Part shown: positions 22,584 through 61,849 of the stretch, piece after piece
Layout: every line of letters starts with the position of its first letter
Numbering within the stretch: the stretch's first letter is position 1
Origin: Sedimentisphaerales bacterium
Lineage (GTDB): Bacteria; Planctomycetota; Phycisphaerae; Sedimentisphaerales; SM23-30
Length of the DNA stretch: 64,000 bases
Assembly: GCA_963666285.1 (NCBI GenBank)
Contig: OY762711.1
Reading direction: 5' to 3' (one strand)
Program-made: the position numbers and the translations under genes
Notes under the pieces: generated by a model
Seen by the model: the letters and a program-made list of their open reading frames with translations, nothing else
Told to the model about the DNA's origin: nothing
Database searches by the model: none

Positions 22584-22596
22584 AACTTAATTCTCC

Positions 22597-25968: not shown

Positions 25969-25972
25969 ACAT

Positions 25973-26076
25973 TCGCCGTAGGCGATTTATAATAAGGTTG
26001 CGTAGCAACACTTTCTTTACACTTTTTATTTTACCCTTTACACTTTGATGCCGCTTCGCGGCATCTGGTCTGCCCA
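25973..26076. repeat. ~105-bp dispersed intergenic repeat, copy 2
   Basis: Near-identical to 2445-2549. Confidence 0.9.
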
Positions 26077-41798: not shown

Positions 41799-41885
41799 AT
41801 ACTTTATCCATAAACTGGAAAAGTGATATTGCTATAAAGTAAACCTCTACAGCAATATCACAATATTAAAATCATATTAAAAATA

Positions 41886-42695: not shown

Positions 42696-42827
42696 CTTTT
42701 CCTCCATAGATATTAAATTACATGGCATACAGCCAAAATATAAAACCTATGCTGAGCCGCAAATAAGCAGCCCAGCAAGGTAACATGAAAAAATTGTCAA
42801 AAAAGAATTACTCATAGTAAGCCTGTA

Positions 42828-45002
42828 CTAATTACAAGCTTGCTGCGGATATAGATTACAGCTTAGCCAATCAATTGCAAACTGGGCAAAATCGGCAACA
42901 TTAACCATACAGTTTCCATCAAAATCCATTTCCGGTTGTGTTTTGCATGCAGGCATCCCAACAACTGAATAATAATCCTCGGCAAGAATTTCAAATGGAA
43001 CCGGATAATTCCAGACTTTAACATCATCAATTAAACCACTAAACCGCTCCTGGCCATTTCGATTACAACCAACCTGGAACTGGCCAAAATCTATATCAGA
43101 AACAGAACTTTGAACTTTTACTATTCCATCCAGGTTATAGTAAACTTCAGTAGAAAAACCATCACAAACAACAGTAATATAAACCCAATCTGTCGACGAG
43201 GCAGGTCCAATTAACATGCCCTGGCTTCCCCAGTATCTGTACTGTCTATCAATACTAAAATCAATCTGGAAATCACTGCCGCCATCGTTATTATTGAAGA
43301 TACCAGTATATTGCCCCTGGTTTTCAGTCTCAGCTTTAACCCAAAATGCCAAAGTGTATCCCGCATAGAAAGTTTTAGGTTCAACGGTCTCCGGATCACC
43401 ATCCATATCAATACCTAATGGAGCAGTAAGCCGATCATAGTCACCATTAGATTCTACTACAAATTCAGCCGAATGACTGCCGATGGCACCCGGGATATCG
43501 TCTGATAATGAAGGGAATGTAATATTCGGGTCAGCCGGATCTACCTTAACAGATTCATCTATAGCATCATTGCCATTGTTAGACATATCCATAAATTCTG
43601 ATGTTTCCATGTCCCAATATAAAACCATCCTATTGATAGTAAAATAAGCCGGTTCAGAAGGAACTTCCGTACCGCTGGCATTTGAAACAACACAGTAATA
43701 GTAACATTCATTAGCAACTTCAGGTATTAGAGATAAAACAGGTGTGTCAATACCAACCGGCGAATCATCAGCAGATAACGGATCATTATTGTTATCAATA
43801 GATTTATACCATTGATAATGCGGTGTAGTTAAGCTGCTAACCTCAATAGAAAAAGAGACTTCAGGATCACCTACAAATGCTGAATTATGCTCAGGCTGGC
43901 TAATAATAACAGGAATACTTGGTAAAGAACCAAACGTCCATACCGGGCCTTCGATTGTTGCAGGAGATGTTGGAGCAGAATCATTAACGCTTTCATCTAC
44001 CCTCCAGTAATAATTCTTATCAAATTCAAGAGATAAAGAGTTTGTATTTGAAGACAACTCCTGAGGTACCACATCAATAAAATTAGGTTCATCAACACTA
44101 ATATAGAAATAATGCTTGGTAATGCTTGGGTTAGCCTGAGTTTCGTCAGCAGGATTAACGGCGACATTCCAGCTAAAATCAACACTCACTTTATCACCGT
44201 CAATCACTCCCTGATGAACAGCATTATTGGCCGGACTTGGGGCCCAGGCCTTAACATTCACCAGATTAGCAATTTCCAGATCAGATAAAGCATTGTCATA
44301 AATACGAACATCGTCCATTAAACCAGTCAAAGGCTCACGAGGTAGATCTGATGCCTGGAAGGAATCGCCACCACCAAGACGAACATAATCATTATCTACA
44401 AATGCAGTATTAACCAGCTGATTTGCTCCTCCAGTTTGAGGAACTTCAGCACCATCAAGATAAAATTTAACTTCCGGTGTCCTTACCGCACCGTCATTAT
44501 TAAAATCATCAATAGCTAATGCAACATGATACCACTGGTCTATGACCAATTCCCCGGCAGTAAGAGCTAAAGCATTACCGCCAGCCACTTCAAAACGCAA
44601 CCTGCCATTCTCTATCAAAAAACGGAAATACTGTGAACTGGCAGCATTATTACCCCATTCAACAAGAGTATGACGATTTGATTCCGCTGTCATTTTTACC
44701 CATGCCGAAACCGTTCTTGGGGTACTGTTTAAGACACCCTGAGAATCAGTTAAAATCCAATCATCACCATCAAAGTTTAATGCAGTACCACGAACAGAAT
44801 CACCAGACACCCAGGTCGGACCTTGCCCGGAACTTGAAGCAGGATTTGCCCCCTGCATAAATACCCCGGTATTACCGCCGGTTCCAAAATCAGCAGTGGT
44901 AAACCCGCTGCCCTCGTTCATTTGCCAGTGATTTACCAACTCTGCTTGCAAAGATACTGCCAGGCACAAAAGAGTAGTTGTAAGATATCCCACTAATTTC
45001 AT
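42828..45002 (-). CDS. Secreted LamG-Ig-LamG protein with C-terminal dockerin-like domain
   Basis: Signal peptide; two LamG domains; YQWYK...YYCVVSN; DFDGNCMVNVADFAQFAIDWL. Confidence 0.8.
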   Translation of the reverse strand: MKLVGYLTTTLLCLAVSLQAELVNHWQMNEGSGFTTADFGTGGNTGVFMQGANPASSSGQGPTWVSGDSVRGTALNFDGDDWILTDSQGVLNSTPRTVSAWVKMTAESNRHTLVEWGNNAASSQYFRFLIENGRLRFEVAGGNALALTAGELVIDQWYHVALAIDDFNNDGAVRTPEVKFYLDGAEVPQTGGANQLVNTAFVDNDYVRLGGGDSFQASDLPREPLTGLMDDVRIYDNALSDLEIANLVNVKAWAPSPANNAVHQGVIDGDKVSVDFSWNVAVNPADETQANPSITKHYFYISVDEPNFIDVVPQELSSNTNSLSLEFDKNYYWRVDESVNDSAPTSPATIEGPVWTFGSLPSIPVIISQPEHNSAFVGDPEVSFSIEVSSLTTPHYQWYKSIDNNNDPLSADDSPVGIDTPVLSLIPEVANECYYYCVVSNASGTEVPSEPAYFTINRMVLYWDMETSEFMDMSNNGNDAIDESVKVDPADPNITFPSLSDDIPGAIGSHSAEFVVESNGDYDRLTAPLGIDMDGDPETVEPKTFYAGYTLAFWVKAETENQGQYTGIFNNNDGGSDFQIDFSIDRQYRYWGSQGMLIGPASSTDWVYITVVCDGFSTEVYYNLDGIVKVQSSVSDIDFGQFQVGCNRNGQERFSGLIDDVKVWNYPVPFEILAEDYYSVVGMPACKTQPEMDFDGNCMVNVADFAQFAIDWLSCNLYPQQACN

Positions 45003-45111
45003 TTTTAACCTCCAAAACGTTGAAAAGTATGTTTAACAGTCGAAAATTACATATTTCCGCGCGCACATTCCTTGTATAGGTCGCCGACAAGCCACCAAAA
45101 TCTAAATAGTT

Positions 45112-46749
45112 TTAATTAAAGGCTGAATTATATAATGATTCAATTTGACGGTCGCTTAGCTGACCGGGAAACAAAATAATATCAGAAATCGCTCCATCCA
45201 TACCTTTGATACCATCAAAATCTCCTCCAATTATGAAAGTGCTATAAGGAGCAACAAACTCTGCTTTATCATTTTCAGAAGCACTAACCTTCTGACCATT
45301 TATATACATGTATTTATAGCTAGTATCATTACTTGCACGAACAATGGTAATAAAATACCACTTATTGGTCTCAAGTGTTATGTCACCTCTTGCTGTTTTA
45401 GCTTTATCTGAGTCAATACTATAGGCAAAGTGCTCTAACTTACCTTCCGAATCTATCATATTAACACGCCAATTACCCCCTGAATCCGGACTATCGGCAC
45501 AAATAAACTGAGGTTCAATTGAATTCAGTTTCACCCAATAGCCAATAGTATAGTAGTAATTTTTGTGCTGGGCGAGTGACCGCATATTATTAACCGTAAC
45601 GGCAGGTTGGGAACCAAAAACTCTAAGAGCACTGGACTGTTTATTGCCCGTGAGAACAGGCCCGGAAACAGAATACATCTGCTGGTTGACACTAACATCT
45701 AAAGTTGAGCCAGGAATATTATTTTTAAGTATTGCAGGATGATCACCATCAACTTTGAGATGCATAATAGCACCGAGAGATTTAGCGGTTAAATCAAACC
45801 TGGTTGGCATATCAAAGGCAAAGCTAGTAGTATCAAGCTTGATATTCACAATTTGATCAGATGTTGCCCGGCATGCCTGATTGGCACAAAGTCTTACCGA
45901 ACGTGACGACTCGTTGTCACCTGACGACACTGCCTCCATCTCGATGATGCCGGATTTGACATAAGCCTCAGTAACCTCCATACCATCAGTATATATACCA
46001 AACCTGGTACCAAAATCAGTTATAGATGCAGCAGGCGTATCAACAGTAAACCCTATTGCCTGGTGGGAAACATTAGCAGTAAGCCTGCCCTCGGCGAGAT
46101 ATATTGTATTGCTGGAAAACAGGTTGATCTCTGCCGGAGCTTCAAGAATAAGGTCAACACCTGTATTAAGATGTATCTGGGCAAAACCATTTATAAGTGT
46201 ATACACACCGGGTTTCATATTACGGTTATCATTATCCGGATCGAAAGAATTTTCCCATTGGGCATTTATCTGGTCACTTACATAAGCAACATTTTTATTA
46301 TTGCCGTCAGCGGTAAATCTGAGCCAGAAATCAAGTACAGCAAAAGAGATTAAAATCAGGATAACAGCAGCAGTTGAAAGAGCAAAAGAAATAATATTTG
46401 ACCTGCGACTACGCTGGTCAGACTGGATACTGTCTTTAGTTTTATCTAACTCAACTGCGTTATTTTCTGGAATATCAATAGAAGGAGCCGAAGCCTCATA
46501 CTTAGCCATTTTGTCAAGAATATCAGATTCTTTGACAGCACTTAACTGGAGATATAAGCCAAATTCATGGCTGATAGCCTTATCATTTTTTAAAGCGGCA
46601 CACATAGCAATATATTCATAATAATATTTGCACGCAAGCTCATCTTGAGAAAGAATGTTATCAAGCTCAGATAACTGCTCTTCGGTTATCGTTCCTTCCC
46701 GGACCGCATCGCAAAGATCAAATAAAATTGTATATTTATCATCTTTCAT
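45112..46749 (-). CDS. FecR-like anti-sigma/sensor with C-terminal LamG domain
   Basis: Single TM, GFTVDTP...ITDFGTRFG, WYFITIV...LSDRQIESLY. Confidence 0.82.
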   Translation of the reverse strand: MKDDKYTILFDLCDAVREGTITEEQLSELDNILSQDELACKYYYEYIAMCAALKNDKAISHEFGLYLQLSAVKESDILDKMAKYEASAPSIDIPENNAVELDKTKDSIQSDQRSRRSNIISFALSTAAVILILISFAVLDFWLRFTADGNNKNVAYVSDQINAQWENSFDPDNDNRNMKPGVYTLINGFAQIHLNTGVDLILEAPAEINLFSSNTIYLAEGRLTANVSHQAIGFTVDTPAASITDFGTRFGIYTDGMEVTEAYVKSGIIEMEAVSSGDNESSRSVRLCANQACRATSDQIVNIKLDTTSFAFDMPTRFDLTAKSLGAIMHLKVDGDHPAILKNNIPGSTLDVSVNQQMYSVSGPVLTGNKQSSALRVFGSQPAVTVNNMRSLAQHKNYYYTIGYWVKLNSIEPQFICADSPDSGGNWRVNMIDSEGKLEHFAYSIDSDKAKTARGDITLETNKWYFITIVRASNDTSYKYMYINGQKVSASENDKAEFVAPYSTFIIGGDFDGIKGMDGAISDIILFPGQLSDRQIESLYNSAFN

Positions 46750-46755
46750 ACGTTG

Positions 46756-47289
46756 TCAGTCCCATTCCATCTTTCTACTAACACATTTAAACAATGCTAC
46801 ATGTATTTTTTTATACTCTTTATACAATATGTTTACGCTTTTTTCCGTTCTTCTCGCAATTTTCTGGACAGTCTGCCCATCTTCATACCTGAGAGCGAGC
46901 AGGTTTTTGCTTCTTTGCGAAAGTTTTTCTATACATTTGCGCAGTGCTTCCAATGGTTTTTGAGACTCCTTCGCAGAGACTTCGGCAATATCGCTAAGCT
47001 TTTCCAGAGTTGATGAGGTAAAATACTTTCTCTTTGTCTTATCCTTTTTAATATGAGAAAGAACCTGAAAATGAGCAATTTTAAACGCCCAGGCGAGAAA
47101 ATCGGTGCCTGGAGTGTATTCTTGGAATTTTTCCCAGAGAATAACAGTAGTCTCCTGAAATATATCATCAGCTAAATTCCAATCAGCTACATACGACATA
47201 ATAAAACCGTAAATTCTATGCTGATTCGGTGTTAGCAAGTGAAGAAAGCTTTGTATCAATTCTTGTTTGTAATCTTTGTTATCTACCAT
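46756..47289 (-). CDS. ECF RNA polymerase sigma factor
   Basis: ADDIFQET...WEKFQEYTPGTDFLAW, ALRKCIEKL. Confidence 0.92.
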   Translation of the reverse strand: MVDNKDYKQELIQSFLHLLTPNQHRIYGFIMSYVADWNLADDIFQETTVILWEKFQEYTPGTDFLAWAFKIAHFQVLSHIKKDKTKRKYFTSSTLEKLSDIAEVSAKESQKPLEALRKCIEKLSQRSKNLLALRYEDGQTVQKIARRTEKSVNILYKEYKKIHVALFKCVSRKMEWD

Positions 47290-47476
47290 TTTGGAGCAAT
47301 TAATAATGCATCTTAAAAATTATGATATAAGCATATATCCTCTCATCAAGAATTTCGCCATTTTTTTCAATAAAAATACTAGATTTTCCCTCAAAACTGC
47401 GCACACAGGCATTTTTTAGGGAATATTTTAAATAGAGAAAGCCTCATAAGTTATTTACTTACAAGGCTTTATTAAG

Positions 47477-47521
47477 TACGCCATTTAGGACTCGAACCTA
47501 AAACCCACGGATTAAGAGTCC
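47477..47521 (-). tRNA. 3' fragment of tRNA-Lys(CTT) (att-site duplicate, not an intact tRNA)
   Basis: Minus strand GGA-CTCTTAA-TCCGT-GGGTT-TTAGG-TTCGAGT-CCTAA-ATGGCGT-A; no D-arm or 5' acceptor strand even after removing the IS256. Confidence 0.85.
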
Positions 47522-47529
47522 CAAGCTCG

Positions 47530-48976
47530 GGTAGTGTCAAGAATCTTTCGCACATTTATTAGAGTATCCTTCATCCGGTCTTTTCCCGGTTCTGGATGCC
47601 CCCCTAGGGGGGCGGCGAGTTATCGGTCGCTAGCCAGTTTTTTTATTCATTTTTTGCTCCTTCTCAAGATCGTATAAATGCTCCATATTCAGATATCTTT
47701 TAGTACTCCATTTTGTTCCTGCTATATGTCTTAGCCGGGCAGTGGCTAACATCAAAGCACTATGACCGTCTGGAAAACTACCAACAACTCGGGTACGTCG
47801 CCGAATCTCTTTCATTATACGTTCCAGACCATTATTGGTTCTCAGTCTGCTCCAATGCTCATCAGGGAAGTTATAATAGCTCATAGTCTCCATGTAACCT
47901 TCTTCTACAACTTTGGCAGCTTCTTTCAATTTCATAGAGAGAAGTTTTTCAATTACCTGCCTGGCTTTTTCCTCTGCTGCTTTCTTGTCTTCCTGAGCAT
48001 GGATAGCTTTAAGCATAGCCGCTACCTCACGAACCTTCTGACGTGGAACTTTGCTAAAAACATTACGATACCAATGTACTGTACATCTTTGCCATAGCGA
48101 GTCTGGGTAGTATTGCTCAAGAGACTCTACCAGCCCCATGCACTTATCTGTAACAAACAACCTTACATCTTTAAGCCCTCTGGATTTCAAATGCCTGAGA
48201 AATTGCCCCCATCCTTCCTTGTCTTCTTTGGGACCTTCCCAGCTGCCTAATACCTCTCGGTAACCGTCCTGATCGACTGCTATTGCGACCAGGACTGAAA
48301 CATTGCGAACCTCTCCAGCCCAGCTTCTTTTTAGAACTATCCCATCCAGGTAAACATAAGGGTAATTGCCTTTAAGCTCTCGATTACGCCATTGTTCTAT
48401 CTGACTGTAAACCTTCTTGTTGAGATTGCTGATTGTGCCGGGACTTACCTTTGTTCCCCATAACGTCTGAGTGATATCTTCAACCCTGCGAACAGAAACG
48501 CCTGCAAGATACATTTCTATTAGAGATTCCTCTACGGATGATTCACGACGCTTATAACGCTCAATTATGGCTGTCTCGAATGTGGTCTTACGCAACTTGG
48601 GCATCTTCAAATTGACTTCACCGGCTTGAGTTTGCAACTTACGATCATAGAAACCTGCTCTGGTATCTTTACGAGCTTCGCTACGCTCATATCGTGCAGC
48701 ATTACAAAGCTGGTCAGCCTCGGCATCAAGCATGGTATTCAACGTATCCTCAACGGTGGTACGTACTAGATCTCCAAGCTCATGCTTTACCCGTGCCTCA
48801 TCAATTTTTATGACATTATTCAAGTTCTTGTCATTTCCGGTCGATTGCTCTAACTGTTTCATTTGAAGTCCTTTCTTCTGGTTAATAATAATTTGTTCGT
48901 TACATTACTATCGACCGGATGAAGGACTTCTTTTATCACGTCCAATAAAATTGTGCGAAAAATATTATACGTTATC
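47530..48976 (-). mobile_element. IS256-family element, 1447 bp, 8-bp target duplication
   Basis: IRs GGTAGTGTCAAGAATCTTTCGCACA / TGTGCGAAAAATATTATACGTTATC; CAAGCTCG at 47522-47529 and 48977-48984. Confidence 0.95.
47630..48862 (-). CDS. IS256-family transposase
   Basis: EMYLAGVSVRRV, YVYLDG, WQRCTVH, RTNNGLERIMKEIRRRTRVVGSFP. Confidence 0.96.
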   Translation of the reverse strand: MKQLEQSTGNDKNLNNVIKIDEARVKHELGDLVRTTVEDTLNTMLDAEADQLCNAARYERSEARKDTRAGFYDRKLQTQAGEVNLKMPKLRKTTFETAIIERYKRRESSVEESLIEMYLAGVSVRRVEDITQTLWGTKVSPGTISNLNKKVYSQIEQWRNRELKGNYPYVYLDGIVLKRSWAGEVRNVSVLVAIAVDQDGYREVLGSWEGPKEDKEGWGQFLRHLKSRGLKDVRLFVTDKCMGLVESLEQYYPDSLWQRCTVHWYRNVFSKVPRQKVREVAAMLKAIHAQEDKKAAEEKARQVIEKLLSMKLKEAAKVVEEGYMETMSYYNFPDEHWSRLRTNNGLERIMKEIRRRTRVVGSFPDGHSALMLATARLRHIAGTKWSTKRYLNMEHLYDLEKEQKMNKKTG

Positions 48977-49192
48977 CAAGCTCGCTCTATATCCCCTATA
49001 TTTACAGGCACTTACAAGCCTATTTTGGTGTAAAAATGGCACTTACAGCACAATAACAATACAACACTAACTACAATAACACGGGGTTGACAGTTGCGAT
49101 TGACACCATTTTGACACCGCTTACTATACGTTAAAGTATCAAACGTTTCTCTTTCATTGATAATTAAAGAGAATTGTAATAGATTAAATGCT

Positions 49193-50338
49193 CTATTGAG
49201 ATAGCGTTTCATTTCTTTCTAAATGTCTTAATGTTGAGTTTATTTTTGATTGTAACACTTTTTTTGGGGGAAAACGCTTCTTAAGCATTTCTATAACGCC
49301 AATGTCACCTTTATTTGCTACGCTAGTTTTAACGGCTTTTAATGCCCATTTAATTTCATAATCTTTATTCGATTCTTTAAGTACAGCATGAACTTCCGGC
49401 TTGATATCTTTATATGAATAATAATGAAGACAATAGATACCTTTCTGCCTTAGGGCTAAATTAGACGAATCTTTGATGATGTTTTTTATGATCTTTAAGT
49501 CACCTTTTTGAGGGTAAGTAACCAGATTCAATAATGCACCGATCCGCAAACCATCTTTTTCCTTTGTATCATTAATTACACCATACAAAAACTTTCTGGC
49601 TTTACTATTCTTTTGAGTCCCGAGTATATAAAATGCTTTCTTAGAAATATTCTCATCATCACCCTTCCAGCCTTTATAGCTGCCAATCAATAAAGAACTC
49701 ACATCCGTTCTCTTACCAAGAATACAACCGCTCATAACAGCGTCTTTTAATATTTCATCCGCTTCTTGAGCGTTCATGGTTTCATACATCAGCCCAACAT
49801 ATTTATCACCTTTTTGACTTGCCAGGACATGGTAGCCCAGGGCTTTGACCTTATCAACATCACAGTTCATCGCAATTTTATACCAGAATTGGTCAGAACC
49901 AAATATTTTTTGTTTCATCAACTTATCATACATATCGTCAGGTACATCTGCTGGCAATTCCTCTTGAAACTTCCACAACCTTTCAATCATAAAGACCTGA
50001 ACAATAAATTTCTTTTCCGGGCTGTCCTTTAGAGAAAACGGCGGCTGCCAAATATAATGCCCTGCCCGATCCTGCTGACATTCAGTATTATCCAGCACAG
50101 AAAAAGCCTTAGGGTAATCACTACGCGCTTTTAAGATATACGCTTGCAGCAAAACATCCCAGCTATCTGTCCCAATAGAATTAAGATCATTATTATATTC
50201 AAACTTTCCTTCAGCCAACAAAGCAGAATATAAATCCCCTTTTGTTTTAGCTAACAATTCTATCTGCCCATGATTAGTAGCGAAACAAAAACAACAACAA
50301 ATCAAATTAGCAATAATTATATTTAATATATTCTTCAT
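49193..50338 (-). CDS. Exported hypothetical protein with HEAT-like helical repeats (partner of the PAD gene)
   Basis: Signal-peptide-like N-terminus; repeated LR..A/G-L/I..L helices; starts 26 nt after the PAD gene stop. Confidence 0.65.
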   Translation of the reverse strand: MKNILNIIIANLICCCFCFATNHGQIELLAKTKGDLYSALLAEGKFEYNNDLNSIGTDSWDVLLQAYILKARSDYPKAFSVLDNTECQQDRAGHYIWQPPFSLKDSPEKKFIVQVFMIERLWKFQEELPADVPDDMYDKLMKQKIFGSDQFWYKIAMNCDVDKVKALGYHVLASQKGDKYVGLMYETMNAQEADEILKDAVMSGCILGKRTDVSSLLIGSYKGWKGDDENISKKAFYILGTQKNSKARKFLYGVINDTKEKDGLRIGALLNLVTYPQKGDLKIIKNIIKDSSNLALRQKGIYCLHYYSYKDIKPEVHAVLKESNKDYEIKWALKAVKTSVANKGDIGVIEMLKKRFPPKKVLQSKINSTLRHLERNETLSQ

Positions 50339-50364
50339 TTTTCACCTTTTCAATTATAAAACGT

Positions 50365-53300
50365 TTAGTTTTGTATTTCCGACCACCAGTTTATATTTGT
50401 TGGTATCACTCTTTTGGTATTACCGCCACAATGCACTTCACCGCTTTTTTTATGATAATACCAGTCATCAATAGCTACAACATCAATTGTACCTGGCAAA
50501 TCAGCTTCAAATGTTTCCAGAATTATATCACGTTGCGTTTCAAGAAGCCCGTTACCATTTAAGTCTTCTCCTTGATCAAGAATAAAGTTGCAATTGACAT
50601 CTTCATCAACACTACCAGTAAAATAACAAAAGAATGGATCCGGAGCTATATACGTGTCAATACTTATACCTTTAAAGACCATTCCATTAACTAGACCCGG
50701 AGTAGCCGCAAGTGCTCCTCCTCTATAAAACTCAAAAAGTACCGGTGCAAATATAATATCATTTTCAATGTCAAGGTTGAATATCTCAGCAACTGCGTTA
50801 TATAAGCCATTTTCGCCGGTCAGATATGAAGAACTTATCTGTTCGTTATAAACTTTAAGAGTAACACCATTAGTTGATTTATTAAGAAAACTGCTTACAC
50901 AAGATTCATAATCTTGTATACCATCTCCATCTACATCTTCTACTAGGCTAATTAATTTAGGTACATCTTGCCCATTAATATCATCATGTAAAATATCCAA
51001 TGCCAATTCAGGACTCGCCATCAAAACCTTCCATCCATGGGTTCCGCTTAGGTCAGGGATAATAGTCATAAACTCATCTACATGCCCAACAGAAAGCCAA
51101 TCAGTATCAAACTCAACAGGGCTTTGTATACCTTGCCTGGTCAGAAATGATTTGAGGTTGTCATATATTAAACTACCATAATATATCCTTCCATAAGGAT
51201 AACTGATACCAGAAACGGTACAAGGCGGACTTACTTCAAGATTTCCAAAGGAATTGTATGTACTATGATGGGAATATCCCTCCTCTATTTGTATTTGAAT
51301 ATGACCTTTGTCAACACCTAGAAAACCACTAGGATAATTTGTCACAGGGAAATTTTTCAAATCTCTATCTCGAACAGAATCCAGAATTACGTGCATTGAA
51401 TGATAAGGGGCTTTTTGATAGCATATTTGAAATTGATCTTGAGCCCACCTGTCTGTACTCTCGATAATGTTATCAATTACACTTTCCGGTGTTGCATCAG
51501 GAAATTCAATTAAACAATATTGACCTGATTCAGCACTACTATTCATTGAGACATAACTCTCAGCTACTTCATCCAAATGATGCAATAGTATCAGTGGCGC
51601 AACTTTAATTTTAATTTCATCATAATGAATAACTCTTTCCTCTGAATCAGAAATCGGGTCAACAAGTTCTGCTATCATTGTCAGTTCCCCGGCAAAATGA
51701 GGACCAAGTCCTTCGACTGCCAATTCTTTATCTTGACCATTAATATCATTTAATGAAATACAAGAACTTCCAACGCCACCAATTTCAAATTCAGAATCAT
51801 CAAATCCAGTATTCGTACTTGCATCAAGGCCTAAAATTGCTTCAGCATCAATGCTCCTCTCTGAAAACACTCTAACAATATCACTTGCCTGAGTCCCCTC
51901 TTTAACATTTTCTGGATTAGACAAACGTAATCTTATATGCCAGTCATCTGGTACTGAGTATGACACAAGCGGTATCTTTCTAAGTATTACTTTAGCCATA
52001 TCACTTAAATCGTCTTCCCCATCTATATTTGCATCGAGGCAGTCTTTTCCCAGTGGAATAGTATTAGAGTCAATCACATCTTCTCCTGGTGCTAAGTAAT
52101 CATCATTATCTACATTACATAGAGTGATTATACCCCATTGATTATTTTCTGCCGCTATATTATCATCCTCATCATTATCATTAACATTTCCATCGTGATT
52201 TCCGTCGCCGTCAATATCCACCTTGAGAATGCATAATTCATAATTCAAAAAAGATTCCCAGCCGGTTGCTCCATCGCCGTCAGGATCAATTTCTACTGTT
52301 ATTAGGTCATAATCCGGCACGGTACTTTGCTTAACAGCTTCAACATAAAAAGTCAAACAATTCCCTCCATTGTCAACATTCATATCTGAAACGCTATAAC
52401 CGACATTGGACTTAATATAATCGCCGCCAATATCAGCAGGTGCAATTTTTCGACTTATATCTCCATTTACATTCCACAATCGCATTTTCCCATCTGGCAG
52501 TGTATATATATATTCGTTTCCTGCCAACTTAACCAACTGATCTGGATCTGATTCAGAATAAATAAACTTAATATAAGCAACATCCATATCTATATCATCA
52601 GGTAAATATGCCTGAACTCTTAAAAACTGACCTCCAGCTCCTATTCCATAATTTCTATACTTATCTATACCATCGGCATAATTAGGAATAAGATCTTTAT
52701 CTTCATCAGTATTGTTAACACCAAGGTATTGTACTTGCCATTCATAGGCTCCCATATCAATTGAACCATGTGCTACCCTAGCATTTCCTGCTAAATCTTT
52801 TGGAATACTGGTATAGCTGGAGCCCTGGTTAACACATGGTGAATTACTCATAAGCTCATAATTCGAGTTAACAGAAGAAACAAAAAGTGGATCTTGGTCA
52901 ATATTTCCTCCTCCATCAGTACCATATATAGAATTCCAGCTCCCACCACTCCCGTTACAATTATGAACATTACTGTTTTCAATTAATACATTATTCGAGA
53001 ATGGACGAATTTCAATTGAAGACGAATCTATATAATTCCAAATTATACAATTCCTAATTAGTACGTCTGCTTCATTTCCATAAAAGCAAATATTTGGATA
53101 CCTCTGCGAAATATTATCCACAAATGTGCAGTTATTGATTTCAATATCGTAATTAGAAACTAATGCACTATTGTAATATGCGATATTATTTGTAAATAAG
53201 CAGTTGTTTATAATAACTTTCTCATCTCCTATAGTGCCAGTATTATAAAATTCAACTGCACCAGAATACTTCGCAGCATTATTGTTAAAAATACAGTTTG

Positions 53301-53870
53301 AAATCAAAGGAGATACACCATCCAGACAACTTATTGCCCCCCCACAGTATAAGTTGATATATCCATTATGTTACTTTCAAAGATACAATTCAATATCGAA
53401 GGACTACCTGCTGCACAATAAATTGCGCCTCCAAGCCGTGCCCCATTTGAGTCTGGAGCATATCCTCTGGTAATTGTCAAACCGTTTAATATGGAATTAT
53501 TTTCTTCATTATTTGCAAAAATGAAACCACGAGCAGGACTTTGTGCAGTACCATTACAATCAATTACTGTACTGGAAATAACATATTTATCATTTGGAGC
53601 AATACTGCGAACCGTAATCGCTTTTCCATTATAATTCAAATCCACGTTACCTGCACCCGTATATGTCCCGGGATATATAATTACTTCATCGCCATCAACA
53701 GCGGCGTCTATTGCTGACTGGATAGTAACTTTGGGACCATGAATTCCATTCCACTCCGAAGCCTGACCATCCCACACATCATTACCATTACCTGATACAT
53801 AGTTAACATCTCCATAGGTAATATTAATTACCATAAAAAGTAAACTTGCACAAATCCTTCTCATACTCAT
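50365..53870 (-). pseudogene. Frameshifted secreted beta-helix protein with C-terminal protein-arginine deiminase (PAD_M plus catalytic PAD domain)
   Basis: ORFs 53331-53903 and 50365-53307 join with +1 nt near G7 (53337-53343); motifs DRWAQD, NSFGNLEVSPP, DWLSVGHVDEF, GEVHCG, terminal WW. Confidence 0.85.
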
Positions 53871-54611
53871 AGATTTATTCTCCATACAGTTACAAAATAA
53901 CAAAACATAGAAATCAGTAGAGCTTCAATTAATTTGCTAATATATCGCAACTCATAATTTGCAATCATTAATTCTATGAATTATTTTTTTGAGGTTACCA
54001 TAAATTCAACCACAAATTGTATTTTACAACTTAATGCTAGCAAGGCAAATAGTTTTTTATATAATCTTACTAATAAACCTACATGAAAGGAATGTTCTAA
54101 TAATGAAATACGGATAAATAATCCGTTGCTCCGTTTGATAGTGCCGCCCTACGCTCAATCATCGCTATTTCTCGCCAAATAATCCGTATGCTTTTTGGCA
54201 AAAAAGAGCAAATTTGGAGAGTGTAAAATACAAGTGACACTAAAATGACTCCATTGGTGTCTTTTTGCGATTTTCACATGCCAAGAAATTGATGCAAGTT
54301 ATTTATCCACAATCTGTTATATCATCGCCGAAAAGTACGTTTTTTAGGCCTACCTAGTCTTAAGAGTACGATATAAGGGATTTTAGACAAAATATAAGTC
54401 ACTAGAGAACAAGGACTTATATAGATAATTATTTATTCTCCAAATACTTACATCAGAAAAATAGTAGTTTAGTAGTAGATAAGTAGTAGACTGCAAATGC
54501 ATACTGCGCACGCAAGTGCGCACATAGGGAAGGTTGTCCTAGGGAAGACAAAGCTTAGGACTATATATGGTATCCTCCAATAATTAAACAATACTCTGGC
54601 TATGATTAAGC

Positions 54612-54679
54612 TTGACATCAACTCTTCTGGCTGGATAATAACATAATCATTTATTTTTAACTGTAGTTTTTTTTATCCA
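54612..54679 (+). promoter_or_regulatory. Putative sigma70 promoter with overlapping inverted repeat (AbiEi operator candidate)
   Basis: TTGACA (54612)-N16-GATAAT; TGGATAA...TTATCCA inverted repeat before the abiEi start. Confidence 0.5.
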
Positions 54680-54686
54680 TAACAAC

Positions 54687-55298
54687 ATGAATATAAGCCA
54701 AGAAAAAATTATTCAAGCCAAGAATGTTTTCAAAAGAAATGGTGGCATCCTACGTACCACTGAAGCCCTCAACCAAGGCGTCCACCCAAGAACTCTATAT
54801 TATATGAGAGATAACGGCATACTGGAAGCCTTATGCAGGGGTACATACCGCCTAGCCGAATTGCCCCCACTTGACCAACATGATGTTATAACAGTTGCAT
54901 CAAAAGTAAAATCTGGTGTAATATGCCTCATATCTGCTCTATCATTCCATGAGATAACAACCCAGATTCCACATGAAGTATACACCGCAATAAGTCGCAA
55001 CACAGCATATCCAAAACTTAGCTATCCTCCATCACTATTTTTCAGGTTTTCTGACGACTCTTTTAATGCAGGAATAGAAATTCACAAGATCAGTGGCATC
55101 GAAGTAAAGATTTACTCAGCAGAAAAAACCATTGCGGACTGCTTTAAATATCGAAACAAAATAGGCCTTGATGTCGCTATTGAAGCTATGAAATTCTGGA
55201 GAAAGAAAAAAGATATCAGAATTGACAAGCTGATAGAATACGCCAAAATATGCAGAGTATATAATGTTATCAAGCCGTACGCTGAGGCAATGCTATGA
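54687..55298 (+). CDS. abiEi: Type IV TA antitoxin, AbiEi family
   Basis: N-terminal wHTH with RGTYRL, VICLISALSFHEITTQIP, YSAEKTIADCFKYRNKIG. Confidence 0.9.
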   Translation: MNISQEKIIQAKNVFKRNGGILRTTEALNQGVHPRTLYYMRDNGILEALCRGTYRLAELPPLDQHDVITVASKVKSGVICLISALSFHEITTQIPHEVYTAISRNTAYPKLSYPPSLFFRFSDDSFNAGIEIHKISGIEVKIYSAEKTIADCFKYRNKIGLDVAIEAMKFWRKKKDIRIDKLIEYAKICRVYNVIKPYAEAML

Positions 55299-56185
55299 GC
55301 CAGAAAAATGTTAAAAATATCGCTGCCTCTATCAAGCAAAAATTGCTTAACAAATCAAAAGAGATGGCTCGACCATTCTCTGAAGTTCTTCAATATTATG
55401 GCCTTGAAAGATTCCTATATCGAATTTCAGCGTCTAAATATCAGAACAACTTTACACTCAAAGGAGCATTGCTATTCACCGCTTGGAGACAGTCTGCTAT
55501 TAGATCAACTGTTGACATTGACCTTCTTGGAAAGGTTAGCAACAATCCCGACGATATAGTCAAGATTTTTCAAGACATCTGTAATCAAAAGACAGAAGAT
55601 GATGGACTTAGATTTGATGATTCCAGCATAGTCGCTGAACAGATAACACTTGATGCTGACTATCAAGGCGTTCGAGTACTCCTCTATGGCTATTTAGATA
55701 CCGCCAGAATTAGAATACAAGTTGATATCGGTTTCTCAGATGTTATTACGCCAGACTCAGAAGTTCTGGAATACCCAACAATACTAGATATGCCAGTTCC
55801 AAAGTTAAACTGTTATAACAAGGAAACAGCAATAGCAGAAAAACTCCAGGCTATGGTCAAACTGGATCTTCTCAATAGCAGGATGAAAGATATATACGAT
55901 ATCTGGATCCTATCTCAGCAATTTGAATTAAACAACCTATCTTTAGCCAATGCCATCCAAAATACTTTTGAACAACGTAAAACTAAAATAACTACAGATA
56001 TTACGACCTTTACAGAAGAGTTTTATCTTAATGATGAGAAAATTGCTCAATGGAAGGGTTTTCTTAAAAGGTCAAAAGTAACTGGCACTCCCATAGAACT
56101 TGAAAAGGCTGTTCTTGATATCAAATCATTTCTGCTTCCTATTTTGACTAAAATCACACAAAAAGATGACATTAGAAAAAACTAG
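55295..56185 (+). CDS. abiEii: Type IV TA toxin, AbiEii/AbiGii nucleotidyltransferase
   Basis: ERFLYRIS, LKGALL, RSTVDIDLL, AEKLQA, SRMKDIYD; ATGA overlap with the antitoxin. Confidence 0.92.
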   Translation: MSQKNVKNIAASIKQKLLNKSKEMARPFSEVLQYYGLERFLYRISASKYQNNFTLKGALLFTAWRQSAIRSTVDIDLLGKVSNNPDDIVKIFQDICNQKTEDDGLRFDDSSIVAEQITLDADYQGVRVLLYGYLDTARIRIQVDIGFSDVITPDSEVLEYPTILDMPVPKLNCYNKETAIAEKLQAMVKLDLLNSRMKDIYDIWILSQQFELNNLSLANAIQNTFEQRKTKITTDITTFTEEFYLNDEKIAQWKGFLKRSKVTGTPIELEKAVLDIKSFLLPILTKITQKDDIRKN

Positions 56186-56232
56186 ACCCCAAAGTCATCA
56201 ATCTGACAATTCACAACTATTCAAATAATAAG

Positions 56233-56892
56233 CTAGATACCTAATTCGCTAAAATCAAGTTTCCTAAGTTTGAATTTAGAATCTACCATTTTCGATCTTT
56301 TCGGACCAACAGGTTCACTTTTTAGCTGTTCCTCAATCTCTATATATTTTTCTCTGACCAGTGTTACTTTCTTACTATAATATTTATTTCTAACCCATTC
56401 TAATTCTTCTGGTGTACATAAGTCCAAAGCGACCTGCGGCAACTCATCCAGATACAAATATTCAATGTAATCAGAACCATTTTCAACATCAGGTCGTTCC
56501 TGTTCGACGCCCAGAATATGAGGAATAAAGAATAGATTTGCTAACATAGCCTCAACAAGTTTGTCAGATGCTCTTTGCTCATTACCTACCCGATATAAAA
56601 CAAGCATCCATACTAAATAATGAGCAGCATCTCCAATATCATCAGGAAACTTTTCTCCATACCACTGATAGTATTCCAATGCTCCATCCAAATCATCAAT
56701 AAGCAGGTAAAGCAGACCTAGCAAATAACGTTTACCTGCCCCATCGCTTATCCAGCCATGTTCTTCTTGTTCTTTTTTGAAAGATCTTTTATATCTGCTA
56801 ATTCTCTGTTTTAACTTTTTAGGATCAGTGGGTATATCATACATAATGGTATTCCTTCGCTTGCTTTTTCGCCTTATTTCAATATAATTCAC
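56233..56892 (-). CDS. Hypothetical alpha-helical (TPR-like) protein
   Basis: 219-aa ORF, DGAGKRYLLGLLY...YYQWY..FPDD; true start may be the ATG at 56844. Confidence 0.65.
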   Translation of the reverse strand: MNYIEIRRKSKRRNTIMYDIPTDPKKLKQRISRYKRSFKKEQEEHGWISDGAGKRYLLGLLYLLIDDLDGALEYYQWYGEKFPDDIGDAAHYLVWMLVLYRVGNEQRASDKLVEAMLANLFFIPHILGVEQERPDVENGSDYIEYLYLDELPQVALDLCTPEELEWVRNKYYSKKVTLVREKYIEIEEQLKSEPVGPKRSKMVDSKFKLRKLDFSELGI

Positions 56893-56927
56893 CGATTAAT
56901 TTATACATTAATCCTGGAGAAAGCAAC

Positions 56928-57947
56928 TTGAAAATATTATATAGAGTAATCACTACTATACTGGTTCTTATCTTAAAAAATAAGCAGGCTCTAATCCTTG
57001 AAAATATAGCTCTTCGTCAGCAAATAATAATATTACAACGAAGTGTCAAACGTCCTAAAATAAATAACACTGACCGATTATTCTGGATATGGCTATCTCG
57101 TATCTGGGATAACTGGAAATCAGTATTACTTATCGCTAAACCTGAAACAGTAGTTGGCTGGCATATAAAAGGTTTTAAGGCATATTGGAAATGGAAATCC
57201 CGTAGAGTAGGCAGACCTAATATTGATTGGGATCTTATCAAACTAATAAGGAAGCTACAAAAGGAGAACCATCTCTGGTCTGCTCAACGTATTCAGGGTG
57301 AGCTTGCAAAACTAGGATACTCAGTTTGCGAAAACACTGTCGCCAAGTATATGCAAAAACCAAAACCTACTCCAAACCAAAGACAACGTTGGCGAACATT
57401 CATTAAAAATCACGCAAAACATATTGTCGCTATAGATTTCCTTGTTGTCAGAACAATATGTTTTAAGGCTATCTATGTTTACGTTGCACTTTCACATGAT
57501 CGGAGGAAAATCCTGCATGTTGGCGTAAGTTCCAGACCGCATTCACAGTGGGCAATACAACAATTACGTAAAACATTCGCATTTGATGAAACAACCAAAT
57601 ATGTTATTCGCGATAATGACAAAATATATAGCGATGACTTTAAGCATGTAATTGGAAGTTTTGGTCTGGAAGACAAACCTACCGCCATACACTCACCATG
57701 GCAAAATGCTTATTGCGAAAGAGTAATTGGCACACTTCGCAGAGAATGTCTAGATCATATGATCATCCTCAATGAGAAGCATCTTCGCTCCATTCTAAAT
57801 GAATTTGTTGTTTACTATAATAACAGCAGAACTCACATGTCACTTGCCAAGGATTCTCCTGTTGGCAGAGATGTAAAGACTGAAGGTAAAATCTTCAAAA
57901 AGCCAATACTTGGCGGCCTGCATCACGTTTACAACAGAGCTGCTTGA
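56928..57947 (+). CDS. Integrase-core (rve) DDE transposase
   Basis: LENIALRQQ, AIDF, IRDND, SPWQNAYCERVIGTLRRECLDH, LGGLHHVY; element ends not identified. Confidence 0.88.
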   Translation: MKILYRVITTILVLILKNKQALILENIALRQQIIILQRSVKRPKINNTDRLFWIWLSRIWDNWKSVLLIAKPETVVGWHIKGFKAYWKWKSRRVGRPNIDWDLIKLIRKLQKENHLWSAQRIQGELAKLGYSVCENTVAKYMQKPKPTPNQRQRWRTFIKNHAKHIVAIDFLVVRTICFKAIYVYVALSHDRRKILHVGVSSRPHSQWAIQQLRKTFAFDETTKYVIRDNDKIYSDDFKHVIGSFGLEDKPTAIHSPWQNAYCERVIGTLRRECLDHMIILNEKHLRSILNEFVVYYNNSRTHMSLAKDSPVGRDVKTEGKIFKKPILGGLHHVYNRAA

Positions 57948-57961
57948 TTATTGATATATAC

Positions 57962-59041
57962 TCAATGGTAATTCAACCATACGGAGAATGTACGCTCTAT
58001 TTTTACGAAAGCATCATGAACTTTCTCGATTTCAGCAATTTTCTCACCAACATCAAAATAAATATTAAATTCAGATTGTTCTACTTCAGAAGTAAATCTA
58101 AAAAGTGAACAATAAGTTGTACCGGTACCCTCCCAGCTGGTATTCTGTAGGTTAAGATCAACGTTCCAGTAACCAGGATCAAGTATTTCTGTTTTTTTGT
58201 CAACATGACCGCCATAATGGACAGGATCGACTTGGCCAGGCCTTGCACTCAATCTAAAAGCTCCTAAACAGTAATCATAAAGGCAGCGTATCCCTGCCAA
58301 TGAATCACTGCCGTACCAATACGATCCTCCACCGGTGTCTGGAGATGAATGAATCATCGCATATGGAGCTCCAGCACCTGGCTTTGATTCAAATACCCTA
58401 TTGTAAAAACCAGTGTGGTAAGTCGGATCCACTAACTGAACCGGCATTTCGGGATAATCTTCCCATCCAATATCAGCAGTCTCTTTTTGCCTTGAAACCA
58501 ATCTTAAACAATCCCACTCAATATACGTCGAAGAAAGTGGTGTTAAAATTATTTTGCTACCTTGTTTAAGGTAATTAGAGCGAAAACGAACAGATTTCGT
58601 ATCTGAATCCATCCAGTAACGATTTCTATAACCATTAATATCGATAAGCATCAACATGGCAGAGCCATTGTTTCTAGCTACAACATCTAAAACAAGCTCA
58701 CATTGCATATCTGCCTGATTAACATCTACATTAAAAAATAATGTTAAGGGATGAACATAACCAATTTTTTCATTCGCCATATGCCTGGCCCAGACATCTT
58801 CAGGGCCAGGAAGATAAGCAGGAAACGAAACCTCAACATTGTCTTGACCAATTTTAAATGTAATATTTTCAGGATAATAATTAGTAAATCTCTCTTTTTC
58901 CCCAGAAATATGAAACTCACTAGAATTGTCATTATCAAGACCTATTTGCCAAAGCAGATCCCCCTGTTCTGCTAGAGTAATCGTGCCTGAGAAAAGAACG
59001 GCAACTATCAATACATACTTATTAAAATCTGTAAGAATCAT
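57962..59041 (-). pseudogene. Probably 3'-truncated secreted glycoside hydrolase (GH92-like N-terminal region after a lectin-like module)
   Basis: Signal peptide; LWQIG..D....EF module; LVDP...PGAGAPYAMIHSSPDT resembles the GH92 N-terminus; ends 14 nt from the transposase stop with no catalytic domain. Confidence 0.5.
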
Positions 59042-59607
59042 CTTAATCCTTTCACTGATAATATCTTTCATGTAAATCATTATCATAGATATGCTAAAGT
59101 TAGAACTTACTTTTGTTTTTCTAAAGTATTTAAGCAATCGATCATTAAGAGTAATTGTATTAAAAGTGCATCCTAATATAAATCGTATTTCACGACAAAA
59201 CCATCTTAAATTGCGACACATCCCTTTAAATATTGAAGTGTTAAATATATATGATAGACACTTTTCTAGAGGTCTCTATTTGCATATAATTCTTTCACTT
59301 TGATAAGCACCTAAACATAAGAACAAGTTTAATTTCTGCCCATACATACCAATCGACATCTGAAAGGCAATTGGTAAGAAATTACCTCTGACAATTAACA
59401 GCCCACCATTGAAAAATTGGCATAAGACACATATCTGCAATACATTACAACATTTCCACAACAAACAACATTGATAATTACATAATATTAATGTTGTTCA
59501 ACACCCAAATAATCTATGTATATTTGCTTGATAATTACCTATACAGTTTTGTTGCAACGGTGTGAGAAACTAATGCAAATACCCCTAAAAAGAATGTAAA
59601 TGACTGT

Positions 59608-61785: not shown

Positions 61786-61849
61786 TTTCTAATCTCCATA
61801 CTATTTTAATAGCAAATAACTATTTCAAACCACATAAACAAAGTGTCCA

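Follow-up and report, generated by a model that had tools for sequence, protein, structure and literature searches.

A frame-broken protein-arginine deiminase gene and its conserved HEAT-repeat partner gene in a locus that looks horizontally acquired

What might a planctomycete do with a protein-arginine deiminase (PAD) that is carried on a beta-helix and encoded next to a HEAT-repeat protein? To our knowledge, studies of citrullination have dealt almost solely with animals, a single oral pathogen and the producers of lasso peptides. The locus that raises this question lies in a 64,000-nt stretch of DNA, which is called the window hereafter. We consider it fairly probable that it represents a two-gene citrullination module, horizontally acquired and acting outside the cytoplasm, in which an exported HEAT partner would sit on the cleft of a beta-helix deiminase whose gene is now broken.

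The enzyme belongs to the PADI family, as originally predicted, and not to the PPAD/agmatine deiminase family. The PAD-bearing open reading frame (ORF2, encoding P0001; 50365-53352, minus strand) has a PAD part in its last 596 codons: the PAD model (PF03068) matches residues 575-908 with an E-value of 2.1e-56 (192 bits, for a cut-off of 25). All 27 distinct sequences matched by phmmer in the PDB are PAD1, 2, 3, 4 or 6, with PAD1 at the top (5hp5, E 5.4e-38), and P0001 has no Pfam match to PF04371, the PPAD/agmatine deiminase family, at E<=5. The comparison of a predicted structure with PAD4, proposed at the outset, gave a clear superposition. In the AlphaFold2 (AF2) model of the PAD part (pLDDT 82.6, pTM 0.86), residues 1-595 align by VIA with residues 122-663 of human PAD4 (Z 45.4, rmsd 2.5 A, 495 residues aligned), and Foldseek matches the model to PAD4 with an E-value of 1.2e-39 and a TM score of 0.75. 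The PAD_C catalytic domain, a pentein-type propeller delineated by Pfam, phmmer, Foldseek and VIA, occupies 50365..51630 on the minus strand, stop codon included.

The motifs listed in the original prediction are found in the translation, and so are all four catalytic residues. The equivalents of PAD4 D350, H471, D473 and C645 are D639 (codon 51436-51438), H757 (51082-51084), D759 (51076-51078) and C975 (50428-50430) of P0001, according to a HMMER alignment whose reference, the PAD4 chain 3apm_A, is numbered 3 above PAD4; the codons were checked. P0001 also keeps the equivalents of PAD4 W347, R372/R374 and D388, as well as an Asp (D681) at the 'calcium switch' position D389 of PADI2. In the phmmer alignment, Gln residues replace E351 and E353 of PAD4, which we take to be Ca1/Ca2 ligand positions, so calcium control may differ in P0001.

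Upstream of the catalytic domain, residues 400-574 (51631..52155, minus strand) form a PAD_M-like, immunoglobulin-type middle domain with acidic NVDNDD ... DGEDDLSDM motifs. This domain had been aligned by eye with its vertebrate counterparts. The structural comparison agrees, since VIA aligns the model with PAD4 from residue 122 on, but sequence methods see nothing: the Pfam PAD_M model has no match in P0001, and phmmer with the PAD_M part alone finds no match in the PDB at E<=10. The D16 column of the acidic motif (N.D.D) is invariant in the 56 rows of alignment A3; going by the PAD4 literature, the acidic residues of this motif are presumably calcium-site ligands. As for PAD_N (PF08526), which marks the three-domain PADs of animals and late cyanobacteria, there is no Pfam match, and the structural alignment begins only at PAD4 residue 122. 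The gene product would be a two-domain (PAD_M + PAD_C) protein-arginine deiminase of the calcium type, with a putative dependence on calcium. The 194 residues that precede PAD_M (P0001 206-399; 52156..52737, minus strand) are modelled with low confidence by AF2 (pLDDT <50) and have neither a Pfam match nor a usable Atlas match. By eye, this linker looks like the module that precedes PAD_M in P0030.

The N-terminal part of the system is a beta-helix stalk, as had been proposed, although it is spread over two reading frames. ORF1 (179 aa; 53331..53870, minus strand) starts at an ATG at 53870, with GGAG located 9 nt ahead of it. It encodes the N-terminal cap and the first coils, preceded by the segment MSMRRICASLLFMVINITYG, which is signal-peptide-like in the translation, as read by eye, in agreement with the original description; it would direct export by the Sec machinery. 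The rest of the coils, with GGAI.C ... NC.F..N repeats, and the C-terminal cap correspond to P0001 1-205 (52738..53352, minus strand), as identified by AF2, Foldseek and BLASTP. In the AF2 model m946c0b73f1a4, P0001 1-210 is a strand ladder (pLDDT 73-96), for which Foldseek ranks right-handed beta-helix proteins highest, just one match reaching E<=0.001. The stalk remains below all Pfam thresholds, PF02415 included. ORF1 aligns with the N-cap and repeats of the beta-helix protein P0126, BLASTP matches the beta-helix part of ORF2 to the same protein (E 3e-29), and the two jointly match a single beta-helix unit of P0126. The beta-helix is probably a holder that binds a surface or a polymer.

The gene directly downstream, P0242 (381 aa; 49193..50338, minus strand), starts 26 nt past the PAD stop codon. 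Its product has an N-terminus that resembles a signal peptide, followed by an N-terminal part specific to the family and by divergent HEAT repeats, with a weak match to Pfam HEAT_2 (E 0.04). Members of the partner family are ~380-440 aa long and share Y37, W60, R72, E119, W122 and W152 (alignment A4, 14 rows); all 13 homologues inspected start with a hydrophobic, signal-like segment. The family profile, which P0242 itself matches with an E-value of 1.5e-106, collects 69 cluster representatives at E<=1e-30. No fusion with PAD was found among the seven longest matches to this profile. One long match, P0406, matches the profile in two stretches.

A homologue of the partner lies directly downstream of the PAD gene, on the same strand, in 13 nearest loci (seed-HMM E-values of 1e-22 to 1e-69), and the partner follows PAD in all 11 scorable members of the window's clade, 5 others being not scorable. 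One near locus, L009, is without a downstream partner. Over all loci, a partner or HEAT match is found downstream in 67 of 140 scorable cases. The tree splits these occurrences sharply (56 with and 24 without a downstream partner on the window's side, 3 with and 57 without on the other), counts of pairing that are confounded by clade. In distant clades, the partner profile matches by its HEAT half only, the iterated HMM having been built on the matched regions only. PAD-partner units also occur in tandem or multi-copy arrays at related loci. Clustering of the ORFs of the 13 clade loci and the window recovered PAD and the partner together with antisense shadow ORFs, and no other conserved neighbour.

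Models of the PAD-partner complex place the partner over the catalytic cleft. The three runs gave ipSAE values of 0.74, 0.62 and, for one of them, 0.02 (median 0.62), and the best of three controls reached 0.00. The mark of 0.62 is attained by 116 of 157 solved complexes and by 2 of 215 mismatched pairs, counts that hold roughly because our own alignments were used for the complex runs. The runs have at least 15% of their contacts in common, partner pLDDT is at least 78, and the two confident runs show 119-133 contacts. On the PAD side, the predicted interface includes residues 237, 240, 264, 358 and 576, the equivalents of W347, D350, R374, H471 and C645, and the partner contributes loop 88-94 (QQDRAGH). 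The downstream gene had been called 'immunity-like', which fits a gene conserved next to related PADs whose product is predicted to cover the active site.

We propose that the first gene would give rise to a Sec-exported protein made of a right-handed beta-helix, a linker and the PAD_M + PAD_C deiminase, and that the second, translated from the same transcript, would yield an exported HEAT-repeat protein binding the deiminase across its catalytic cleft. The partner would most likely serve as a cognate inhibitor or regulator and keep the enzyme silent until the two separate. It is tempting to speculate further that the partner is a natural proteinaceous active-site inhibitor, i.e. an immunity protein, and that, in planctomycetes, myxobacteria and marine metagenome-assembled genomes (MAGs), the exported pairs of PAD and HEAT protein represent a class of extracellular citrullinating effectors not described so far. 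Their targets, which they would neutralise, would be arginines on the surface or in the secreted proteins of competing or prey organisms, with variable N-terminal modules, here a beta-helix, to aim the enzyme. We put this forward tentatively, as a possibility that may well turn out otherwise.

The complex model does not distinguish between an inhibitor, a substrate and an adaptor. The partner might be a dedicated substrate of the deiminase; alternatively, as an adaptor or chaperone, it might present substrates to the enzyme or anchor it. The modelled loop carries an Arg (R91) placed at the catalytic residues, and most homologues have an Arg in this loop; however, it does not occupy a fixed alignment column. 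HEAT repeats are typical scaffolds, and the pair is kept in lineages without sign of antagonism genes, both of which would suit such a role. The large interface that buries the cleft is a better fit for a stable cap than for a turnover substrate, and we regard the substrate or adaptor role as somewhat unlikely.

Whether the locus currently makes this enzyme is another matter. The region 50365-53870 had been read as encoding a single protein, but this overlooked a frameshift: it comprises two frames, split by a run of seven G residues at 53337..53343 on the minus strand (C7 on the plus strand). ORF1 ends at a TAA codon at 53331-53333, and ORF2 lies in the -1 frame relative to it. One added G fuses the two frames, which then read ...TVGGAISCLDG...; the deiminase gene is interrupted here by the loss of one G inside its beta-helix part. 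Contigs of runs X1 and X2, which represent one sample and possibly the source of the assembly, are identical over the G7 run, with 0 differences; the second sample, run X3, yielded no contig over 53288-53424. The assembly shows no general tendency to break frames at homopolymers: a frame-break pattern is found at only 6 of ~1180 homopolymer runs of the genome, and 53337-53343 is the sole case among its 58 G/C runs of at least seven.

The run might be a reversible switch, by which phase variation would turn a surface-exposed enzyme ON (G8) or OFF (G7). The break coincides with a homopolymer, this lies in the 5' third of a gene whose product would be exported, no further damage is seen in either half or in the partner, and G/C runs of up to 13 occur in the genome. 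Nevertheless, seven G residues make a short run for slippage, and the contigs show no length variant, bearing in mind that contigs drop rare variants. Furthermore, G/C runs of at least eight are not distributed as in contingency loci: among seven ORFs scanned, five contain one (two GLUG-motif proteins, a GH76/LamG protein, AcrB and a histidine kinase), and the other two are positioned just downstream of one. Phase variation thus appears quite improbable to us.

How the module came to be in this genome is suggested by its distribution and surroundings. The original description as an 'animal-type' PAD holds at the level of the family but not of the clade: in our tree, the window PAD groups with planctomycete, myxobacterial and marine MAG PADs, on the side opposite to animals and cyanobacteria. 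A sample of 400 genomes from the phylum contained 38 with PAD; it was found in none of 40 relatives, 21 of which are at least 90% complete. The PAD gene has a GC content of 0.36, for 0.41 in the genome. An IS256-family insertion sequence (47530..48976, minus strand; Transposase_mut, Pfam E 2e-111) sits 217 nt past the partner stop codon. This active element is present in the genome in three 1447-nt copies that are 100% identical. On the other side, Pfam identifies an AbiEi/AbiEii toxin-antitoxin pair divergent from the PAD gene (54687..56185, plus strand) and a transposase with an rve integrase core (56928..57947, plus strand). Absence from the 40 relatives, low GC content and the nearby IS256-type element, AbiE pair and rve transposase make the PAD locus look horizontally acquired. 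This agrees in part with the 'mobile cassette' first suggested, but no cassette ends were found: a repeat search of 46500-60000 gave only short, imperfect two-copy repeats, and comparison of 43000-62900 with three genomes of the same genus returned only fragments of 32-350 nt at 65-94% identity, without island borders.

The original prediction went further and took the protein for a candidate polymorphic toxin, in which a constant secreted stalk would carry interchangeable C-terminal toxins, here a citrullinating one, followed by the cognate immunity gene. The specific partner directly after the enzyme gene, predicted over the active site, the PAD-partner arrays at related loci and the abundance of insertion sequences and toxin-antitoxin genes would all be compatible with this idea. 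The test set beforehand was to look for the same stalk with alternative C-termini, and there are no close relatives so equipped; by this test the idea fails. Among the 120 stalk relatives listed, PAD is confined to the window's own protein; the remainder are 24-49% identical, mostly over 44-50% of the query, and contain generic Beta_helix/Chlam_PMP modules. The stalk paralogues of the same genome are just 24-36% identical. Conversely, none of 15 other PAD proteins scanned has a beta-helix. In the PAD clade, it is the N-terminal module that varies and PAD and the partner that stay constant, whereas a polymorphic toxin would show the opposite. The scanned ORFs gave no Rhs, CDI, T6SS or T7SS markers, and dedicated toxin-export genes were not detected with Pfam among 14 + 22 window ORFs, which for positions 1-43000 comprised only those of at least 200 aa. 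We therefore abandon the polymorphic-toxin idea as very unlikely.

Finally, two further explanations of the frame break are scarcely credible: a bypass in expression, through programmed -1 ribosomal frameshifting or slippage of the transcription machinery on G GGG GGG, and an error of the assembly. A -1 slip within these residues would yield exactly the joined protein, and the stop codon lies one codon past the run. However, no stimulatory RNA structure was found 3' of it (z +0.40, with 128 of 200 shuffled sequences folding at least as well), the independent contig assembly of two runs also has G7, and the assembly is not prone to such breaks. With one G lost in the beta-helix part, the cell probably does not produce the full-length exported enzyme at present. 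The broken gene is either a young pseudogene or in an OFF state, and as a consequence the PAD-partner module may be defunct here.

For this genome alone, the significance of a lone, recently acquired and currently broken PAD copy is modest. The locus is nevertheless a member of a large, little-noticed branch of the PADI family, in which the enzyme appears to work outside the cytoplasm, tied to a dedicated HEAT-repeat protein, export being suggested by the N-terminal segments. Should the HEAT partner turn out to inhibit the enzyme, PADI-type enzymes would have their first natural protein inhibitor, and there would be a way to approach the purpose that extracellular citrullination serves in bacteria, a matter not addressed in the accessible parts of Cummings et al. 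(PMC8826395) and Harris et al. (bioRxiv 10.1101/2020.07.16.207027).

The protein can be compared with several known systems. The stalk is reminiscent of the beta-helix repeats of chlamydial-type polymorphic membrane proteins (Pmp) or 'predicted outer membrane repeat protein' (PF02415, PF13229): it has GGAI ... F..N-type coils, and its relatives carry PF02415 or PF13229. Unlike chlamydial Pmp autotransporters, which combine GGA(I/L/V)/FxxN repeats with a C-terminal autotransporter barrel, the window protein has no PF02415 match and no barrel, and its C-terminus is a PAD. The PPAD of Porphyromonas gingivalis is described as secreted and as citrullinating proteins in the accessible parts of PMC8826395 and bioRxiv 10.1101/2020.07.16.207027, and as calcium-independent in those of the latter (Harris et al.); PPAD belongs to another family, PF04371, which the window protein does not match.

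Actinobacterial PADs of the same Pfam family as the window PAD, PF03068, citrullinate citrulassin lasso peptides, according to the portions of Harris et al. (2020, bioRxiv 10.1101/2020.07.16.207027) available to us, which call their genomic contexts 'highly diverse' and do not mention a HEAT partner. Like them, the window PAD is bacterial and has no obvious substrate gene beside it. It belongs to another clade, and the Nocardia, Streptomyces and Micromonospora loci that we examined are without a downstream HEAT gene. A further comparison is with the two-domain PADI homologues of bacteria and fungi, insofar as the available text of Cummings et al. (2021, PMC8826395) describes them: like these, the window PAD is a PF03068 protein with only PAD_C annotated, a divergent PAD_M and no detectable PAD_N, and falls outside the animal and cyanobacterial clade. 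According to the same text, the PADI2 D389 position is a Gly in actinobacterial and fungal PADs; in contrast, the window PAD keeps the Asp (D681), and it is putatively exported, carries a beta-helix and has a HEAT gene as its neighbour. With human PAD4, PAD1, PAD3 and PAD2 (3b1u, 5hp5, 7dan and 4n2c), it shares the fold over PAD_M and PAD_C (Z 41-45, 27-30% identity), the catalytic D/H/D/C residues, W347, R372/R374 and the motifs GNLEVSPP, GHVDEF and EVHCG. It differs from the human enzymes in its lack of PAD_N, in the Gln residues at E351/E353 and in an extra acidic loop, EDLNGNG, near the C-terminus, and it possesses a signal-peptide-like N-terminus, a beta-helix and a bacterial operon partner.

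The PAD gene (50365-53870, minus strand) most likely specifies an exported protein-arginine deiminase that would be aimed by its beta-helix and controlled or blocked by a co-exported HEAT-repeat cap; the PAD-HEAT pair was most likely acquired from another planctomycete-like lineage, and its PAD is now interrupted. Assignment to the PADI rather than the PPAD/agmatine deiminase family, as in the original prediction, is borne out. Pfam PF03068 matches P0001, the 995-residue frame that holds the 3' part of the gene, at 575-908 (E 2.1e-56), with a second matching stretch at the C-terminus; the PPAD-type family is absent at E<=5, and all 27 PDB sequences matched by phmmer are PAD1, 2, 3, 4 or 6. In a sequence alignment to chain 3apm_A (numbering 3 above that of PAD4; codons checked), the expected catalytic residues D350, H471, D473 and C645 have their equivalents in D639, H757, D759 and C975, and W636, R661, R663 and D681 correspond to W347, R372, R374 and D388. 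Unlike PAD4, P0001 has Gln at the positions of E351 and E353, which we take to be calcium ligands. Near the C-terminus (P0001 ~930-960; window 50440-50560; columns 1470-1500 of alignment A1), an acidic insert (..EED.N.NF.LD.GEDLNGNG.LD..) that looks like a calcium-binding loop is common to the clade of this PAD, and animal PADs and the comparison protein P0021 are without it.

Fold prediction agrees with the proposed pairing of a PAD_M-type middle domain and a catalytic domain. The model of the last 596 residues of P0001 (56-row alignment A3; pLDDT 82.6, pTM 0.86) has human PAD4 as its top Foldseek match (8r8u_A; E 1.2e-39, TM 0.75), and its residues 1-595 superpose on PAD4 122-663 with Z 45.4 and an rmsd of 2.5 A over 495 aligned residues (VIA-align); this region therefore corresponds to PAD_M plus PAD_C. 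Pfam itself recovered PAD but not PAD_M, and the PAD_M part alone drew no PDB match in phmmer. Going by the model, PAD_M of P0001 is probably too divergent for either search. No PAD_N was found in P0001.

The expectation of a single protein across 50365-53870 fails, as the minus strand has no one continuous open frame there. ORF1 (53870-53331, minus strand; 179 aa) starts MSMRRICASLLFMVINITYG, with GGAG 9 nt ahead of its ATG, goes on as a beta-helix N-cap and first coils, and ends at a TAA immediately 3' of a seven-G run (53337-53343, minus strand; C7 on the plus strand), the site of the frame break. P0001 occupies the -1 frame of this strand, which stays open from 53352 up to a stop codon at 50365-50367. 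One added G would join the two frames as ...TYTVGGAISCLDG..., extending the GGAI.C / NC.F..N repeat read from the translations. In alignments, ORF1 matches P0126, a beta-helix protein, over its N-cap and repeats, and P0001 1-205 matches the final coils and C-cap in this kind of unit (E 3e-29); the two ORFs are therefore halves of one gene.

Routine homopolymer error does not account for the break, the pattern being too rare. The genome (6.35 Mb, 4 contigs, GC 0.412) has ~1180 homopolymer runs (G/C >=6, A/T >=8), only 6 of which coincide with the end of one long open frame and the beginning of another; at one of these, window 807-814, a response-regulator gene simply overlaps a kinase gene, and the G7 run is the sole frame-break case among 58 G/C runs of at least 7. 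Independently assembled contigs from two public runs, both from one sample that is possibly the source of the window's DNA, each cover 50000-54100 in a single 8829-nt piece, free of differences and gaps. No RNA structure was found downstream of the G7 run (z +0.40). Apart from the break, ORF1, P0001 and the downstream gene are all intact, so the interruption is either young or reversible. Elsewhere in the genome are G/C runs 10-13 long, along with several 8-9 long (C1:1262023, 1797361, 4905980, 5489601 and others); giant GLUG-motif proteins contain two of them, and AcrB and a histidine kinase contain others.

As for the stalk, the beta-helix was rightly recognized: P0001 1-210 is predicted as a ladder of short strands (pLDDT 73-96), followed by a region with pLDDT <50 (210-430), and its leading Foldseek matches, only one of them at E<=0.001, are right-handed beta-helix proteins (lacto-N-biosidase LnbX, E 5e-4; PL6 alginate lyase; Rhombotarget A; Pel9A). 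The segment between beta-helix and PAD_M (window 52156-52737, 194 residues) may be an extra Ig-like domain; by eye it resembles the pre-PAD_M stretch of P0030, a 1500-aa Phycisphaerae protein (AY.[KR]F.YS..DP ... [FW].[VL]E[AG]V ... I.VE.DPDG). The suggestion of a citrullinating polymorphic toxin is rejected on the behaviour of this stalk. P0001 1-430 has 211 database relatives at E<=0.001, and the best 120 of them, 24-49% identical at mostly 44-50% query coverage, carry Beta_helix or Chlam_PMP and diverse C-terminal domains (S8 peptidase, T9SS sorting, LamG, PKD and dockerin, among others), with PAD only in the window's own protein. The best paralogs within the genome are 24-36% identical. 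A beta-helix is absent from the 15 further PAD proteins scanned, which carry Cys-rich repeats, LysM or unannotated sequence at the N-terminus. The stalk is a common, generic module, and its fusion to PAD is seen only in the window, among the proteins examined.

Directly downstream lies P0242 (49193-50338, minus strand; 381 aa), which starts 26 nt past the PAD stop, is preceded by AAAGGTGA and has a hydrophobic, signal-like N-terminal segment, as do 13 of the 13 partner homologs inspected. On its own it matches HEAT poorly (HEAT_2 E 0.04); a region-only iterated profile identifies its C-terminal half as HEAT repeats, and relatives reach HEAT_2 E 4e-13 to 2e-53. In L010, L011, L012 and ten metagenome loci, the gene immediately after PAD, in the same orientation, is a homolog (seed-HMM E 1e-22 to 1e-69), L009 being the exception among near loci. 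Among 156 loci with a PAD match, 140 are scorable (PAD end complete, followed by 900 nt or more), and 67 of these have a partner-profile match starting directly downstream, L010 being additional by eye; few such matches lie elsewhere in the scorable loci. The partner is downstream in 11 loci of the window's clade (0 without, 5 not scorable), in 56 on its side of the tree (24 without, 32 not scorable) and in 3 on the other (57 without, 41 not scorable), counts that are confounded by descent. Distant clades match the generic HEAT half only. Full-length family members are few: 1.84 billion proteins yielded 69 cluster representatives at E<=1e-30. We found no PAD-partner fusion in seven long partner-profile matches checked, and no recurrent neighbours of the clade's loci besides PAD and partner. 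PAD genes or PAD-partner units are frequently tandem or multi-copy in related genomes and contigs (L010 10864-11652; L012 10885-11385; L086 2-772 and 7145-8149; L090 8692-11667; also L014, L015, L016, L019, L028, L032 and L106), and in Phycisphaerales bin11 a stretch of ~245 kb contains three PAD genes or more.

Folded together, the PAD core (596 aa, A3) and the mature partner (residues 23-381, alignment A4) gave ipSAE values of 0.74, 0.62 and 0.02 in three runs. The best of three controls gave 0.00, and the median of 0.62 is a mark attained in 116 of 157 solved complexes and in 2 of 215 mismatched pairs, an approximate benchmark given the custom alignments used. The runs share at least 15% of contacts, with partner pLDDT >=78. 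The confident interface involves residues 237, 240, 264, 355-358 and 576 of the PAD piece, which include the equivalents of W347, D350, R374, H471 and C645, and on the partner side loop 88-94 (QQDRAGH) and helices around 230-237, 267-274 and 302. The partner is thus predicted to form a cap over the catalytic cleft, a model that would fit an inhibitor, a substrate or an adaptor alike and does not separate them. Of the readings compatible with the data, the boldest is still an effector-immunity logic for the pair.

Horizontal acquisition of the locus is well supported. A search of 40 relatives (3 congeneric, 21 from the same family and 16 from the same order) recovered no PAD (0 of the 21 with at least 90% completeness); across the phylum, 38 of 400 genomes sampled have one. 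With 88% identity, the window's CTP synthase matches proteins named Sedimentisphaerales; others are named Phycisphaerae or Planctomycetota. GC is 0.36 for PAD and 0.35 for the partner, versus 0.41 for the genome. An IS256-type element of 1447 nt (47530-48976) lies 217 nt past the partner; its three genome copies (others at C1:223285-224731 and C1:229463-230909) are 100% identical, so it was recently active. Its flanks (47398-47521 and 48995-49118) sit ~18 nt apart at C1:3372128-3372393, and the element is therefore inside a repeated sequence with an uninterrupted copy elsewhere. On the other side of PAD are an rve transposase and, divergent from the PAD gene, an AbiEi antitoxin/AbiEii nucleotidyltransferase toxin pair (54687-56185), adjoined by an unannotated 219-aa ORF (56233-56892). 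Acquisition aside, the proposed mobile cassette is not demonstrated; no cassette ends were found around the locus, and same-genus genomes are too diverged for mapping its borders. The window also encodes a second large beta-helix protein (22597-25560, minus strand; 987 aa; Beta_helix, DUF11) in a low-GC stretch (20000-26000, GC 0.33), and repeated sets of ECF sigma factor, FecR-type anti-sigma and large LamG/Ig proteins (45112-47289, 29020-33259, 39060-45002), accompanied by sulfatase and glycoside hydrolase genes; this gene content would suit a polysaccharide-degrading planctomycete.

The closest database proteins to this PAD, unnamed and metagenomic, are merely 37-39% identical. A FastTree of 213 PAD regions and a quick IQ-TREE of 74, both unrooted and midpoint-drawn, agree in placing it on a long branch (0.67-0.85) in a clade of 16 members (14 in the smaller tree; support 100) with Phycisphaerales bin11 paralogs, 'bacterium Gpa_12' and metagenome contigs. 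This clade unites with PADs of myxobacteria and of MAGs labelled Rickettsiales (support 99). Animals and cyanobacteria, as sisters, are on the opposite side with proteobacterial and actinobacterial PADs, so that 'animal-type' is true of the family, not of the clade. Full-text literature searches returned no description of the PAD-HEAT pairing among the matches listed, supplements aside. Bacterial PF03068 PADs are already in print (Cummings et al., PMC8826395). In the survey of Harris et al. 2020, most of the 837 bacterial PADs are from Actinobacteria, Cyanobacteria and Proteobacteria, and their genomic contexts are called 'highly diverse'. The sister relationship of animal and cyanobacterial PADs in our trees is also the result of Cummings et al.
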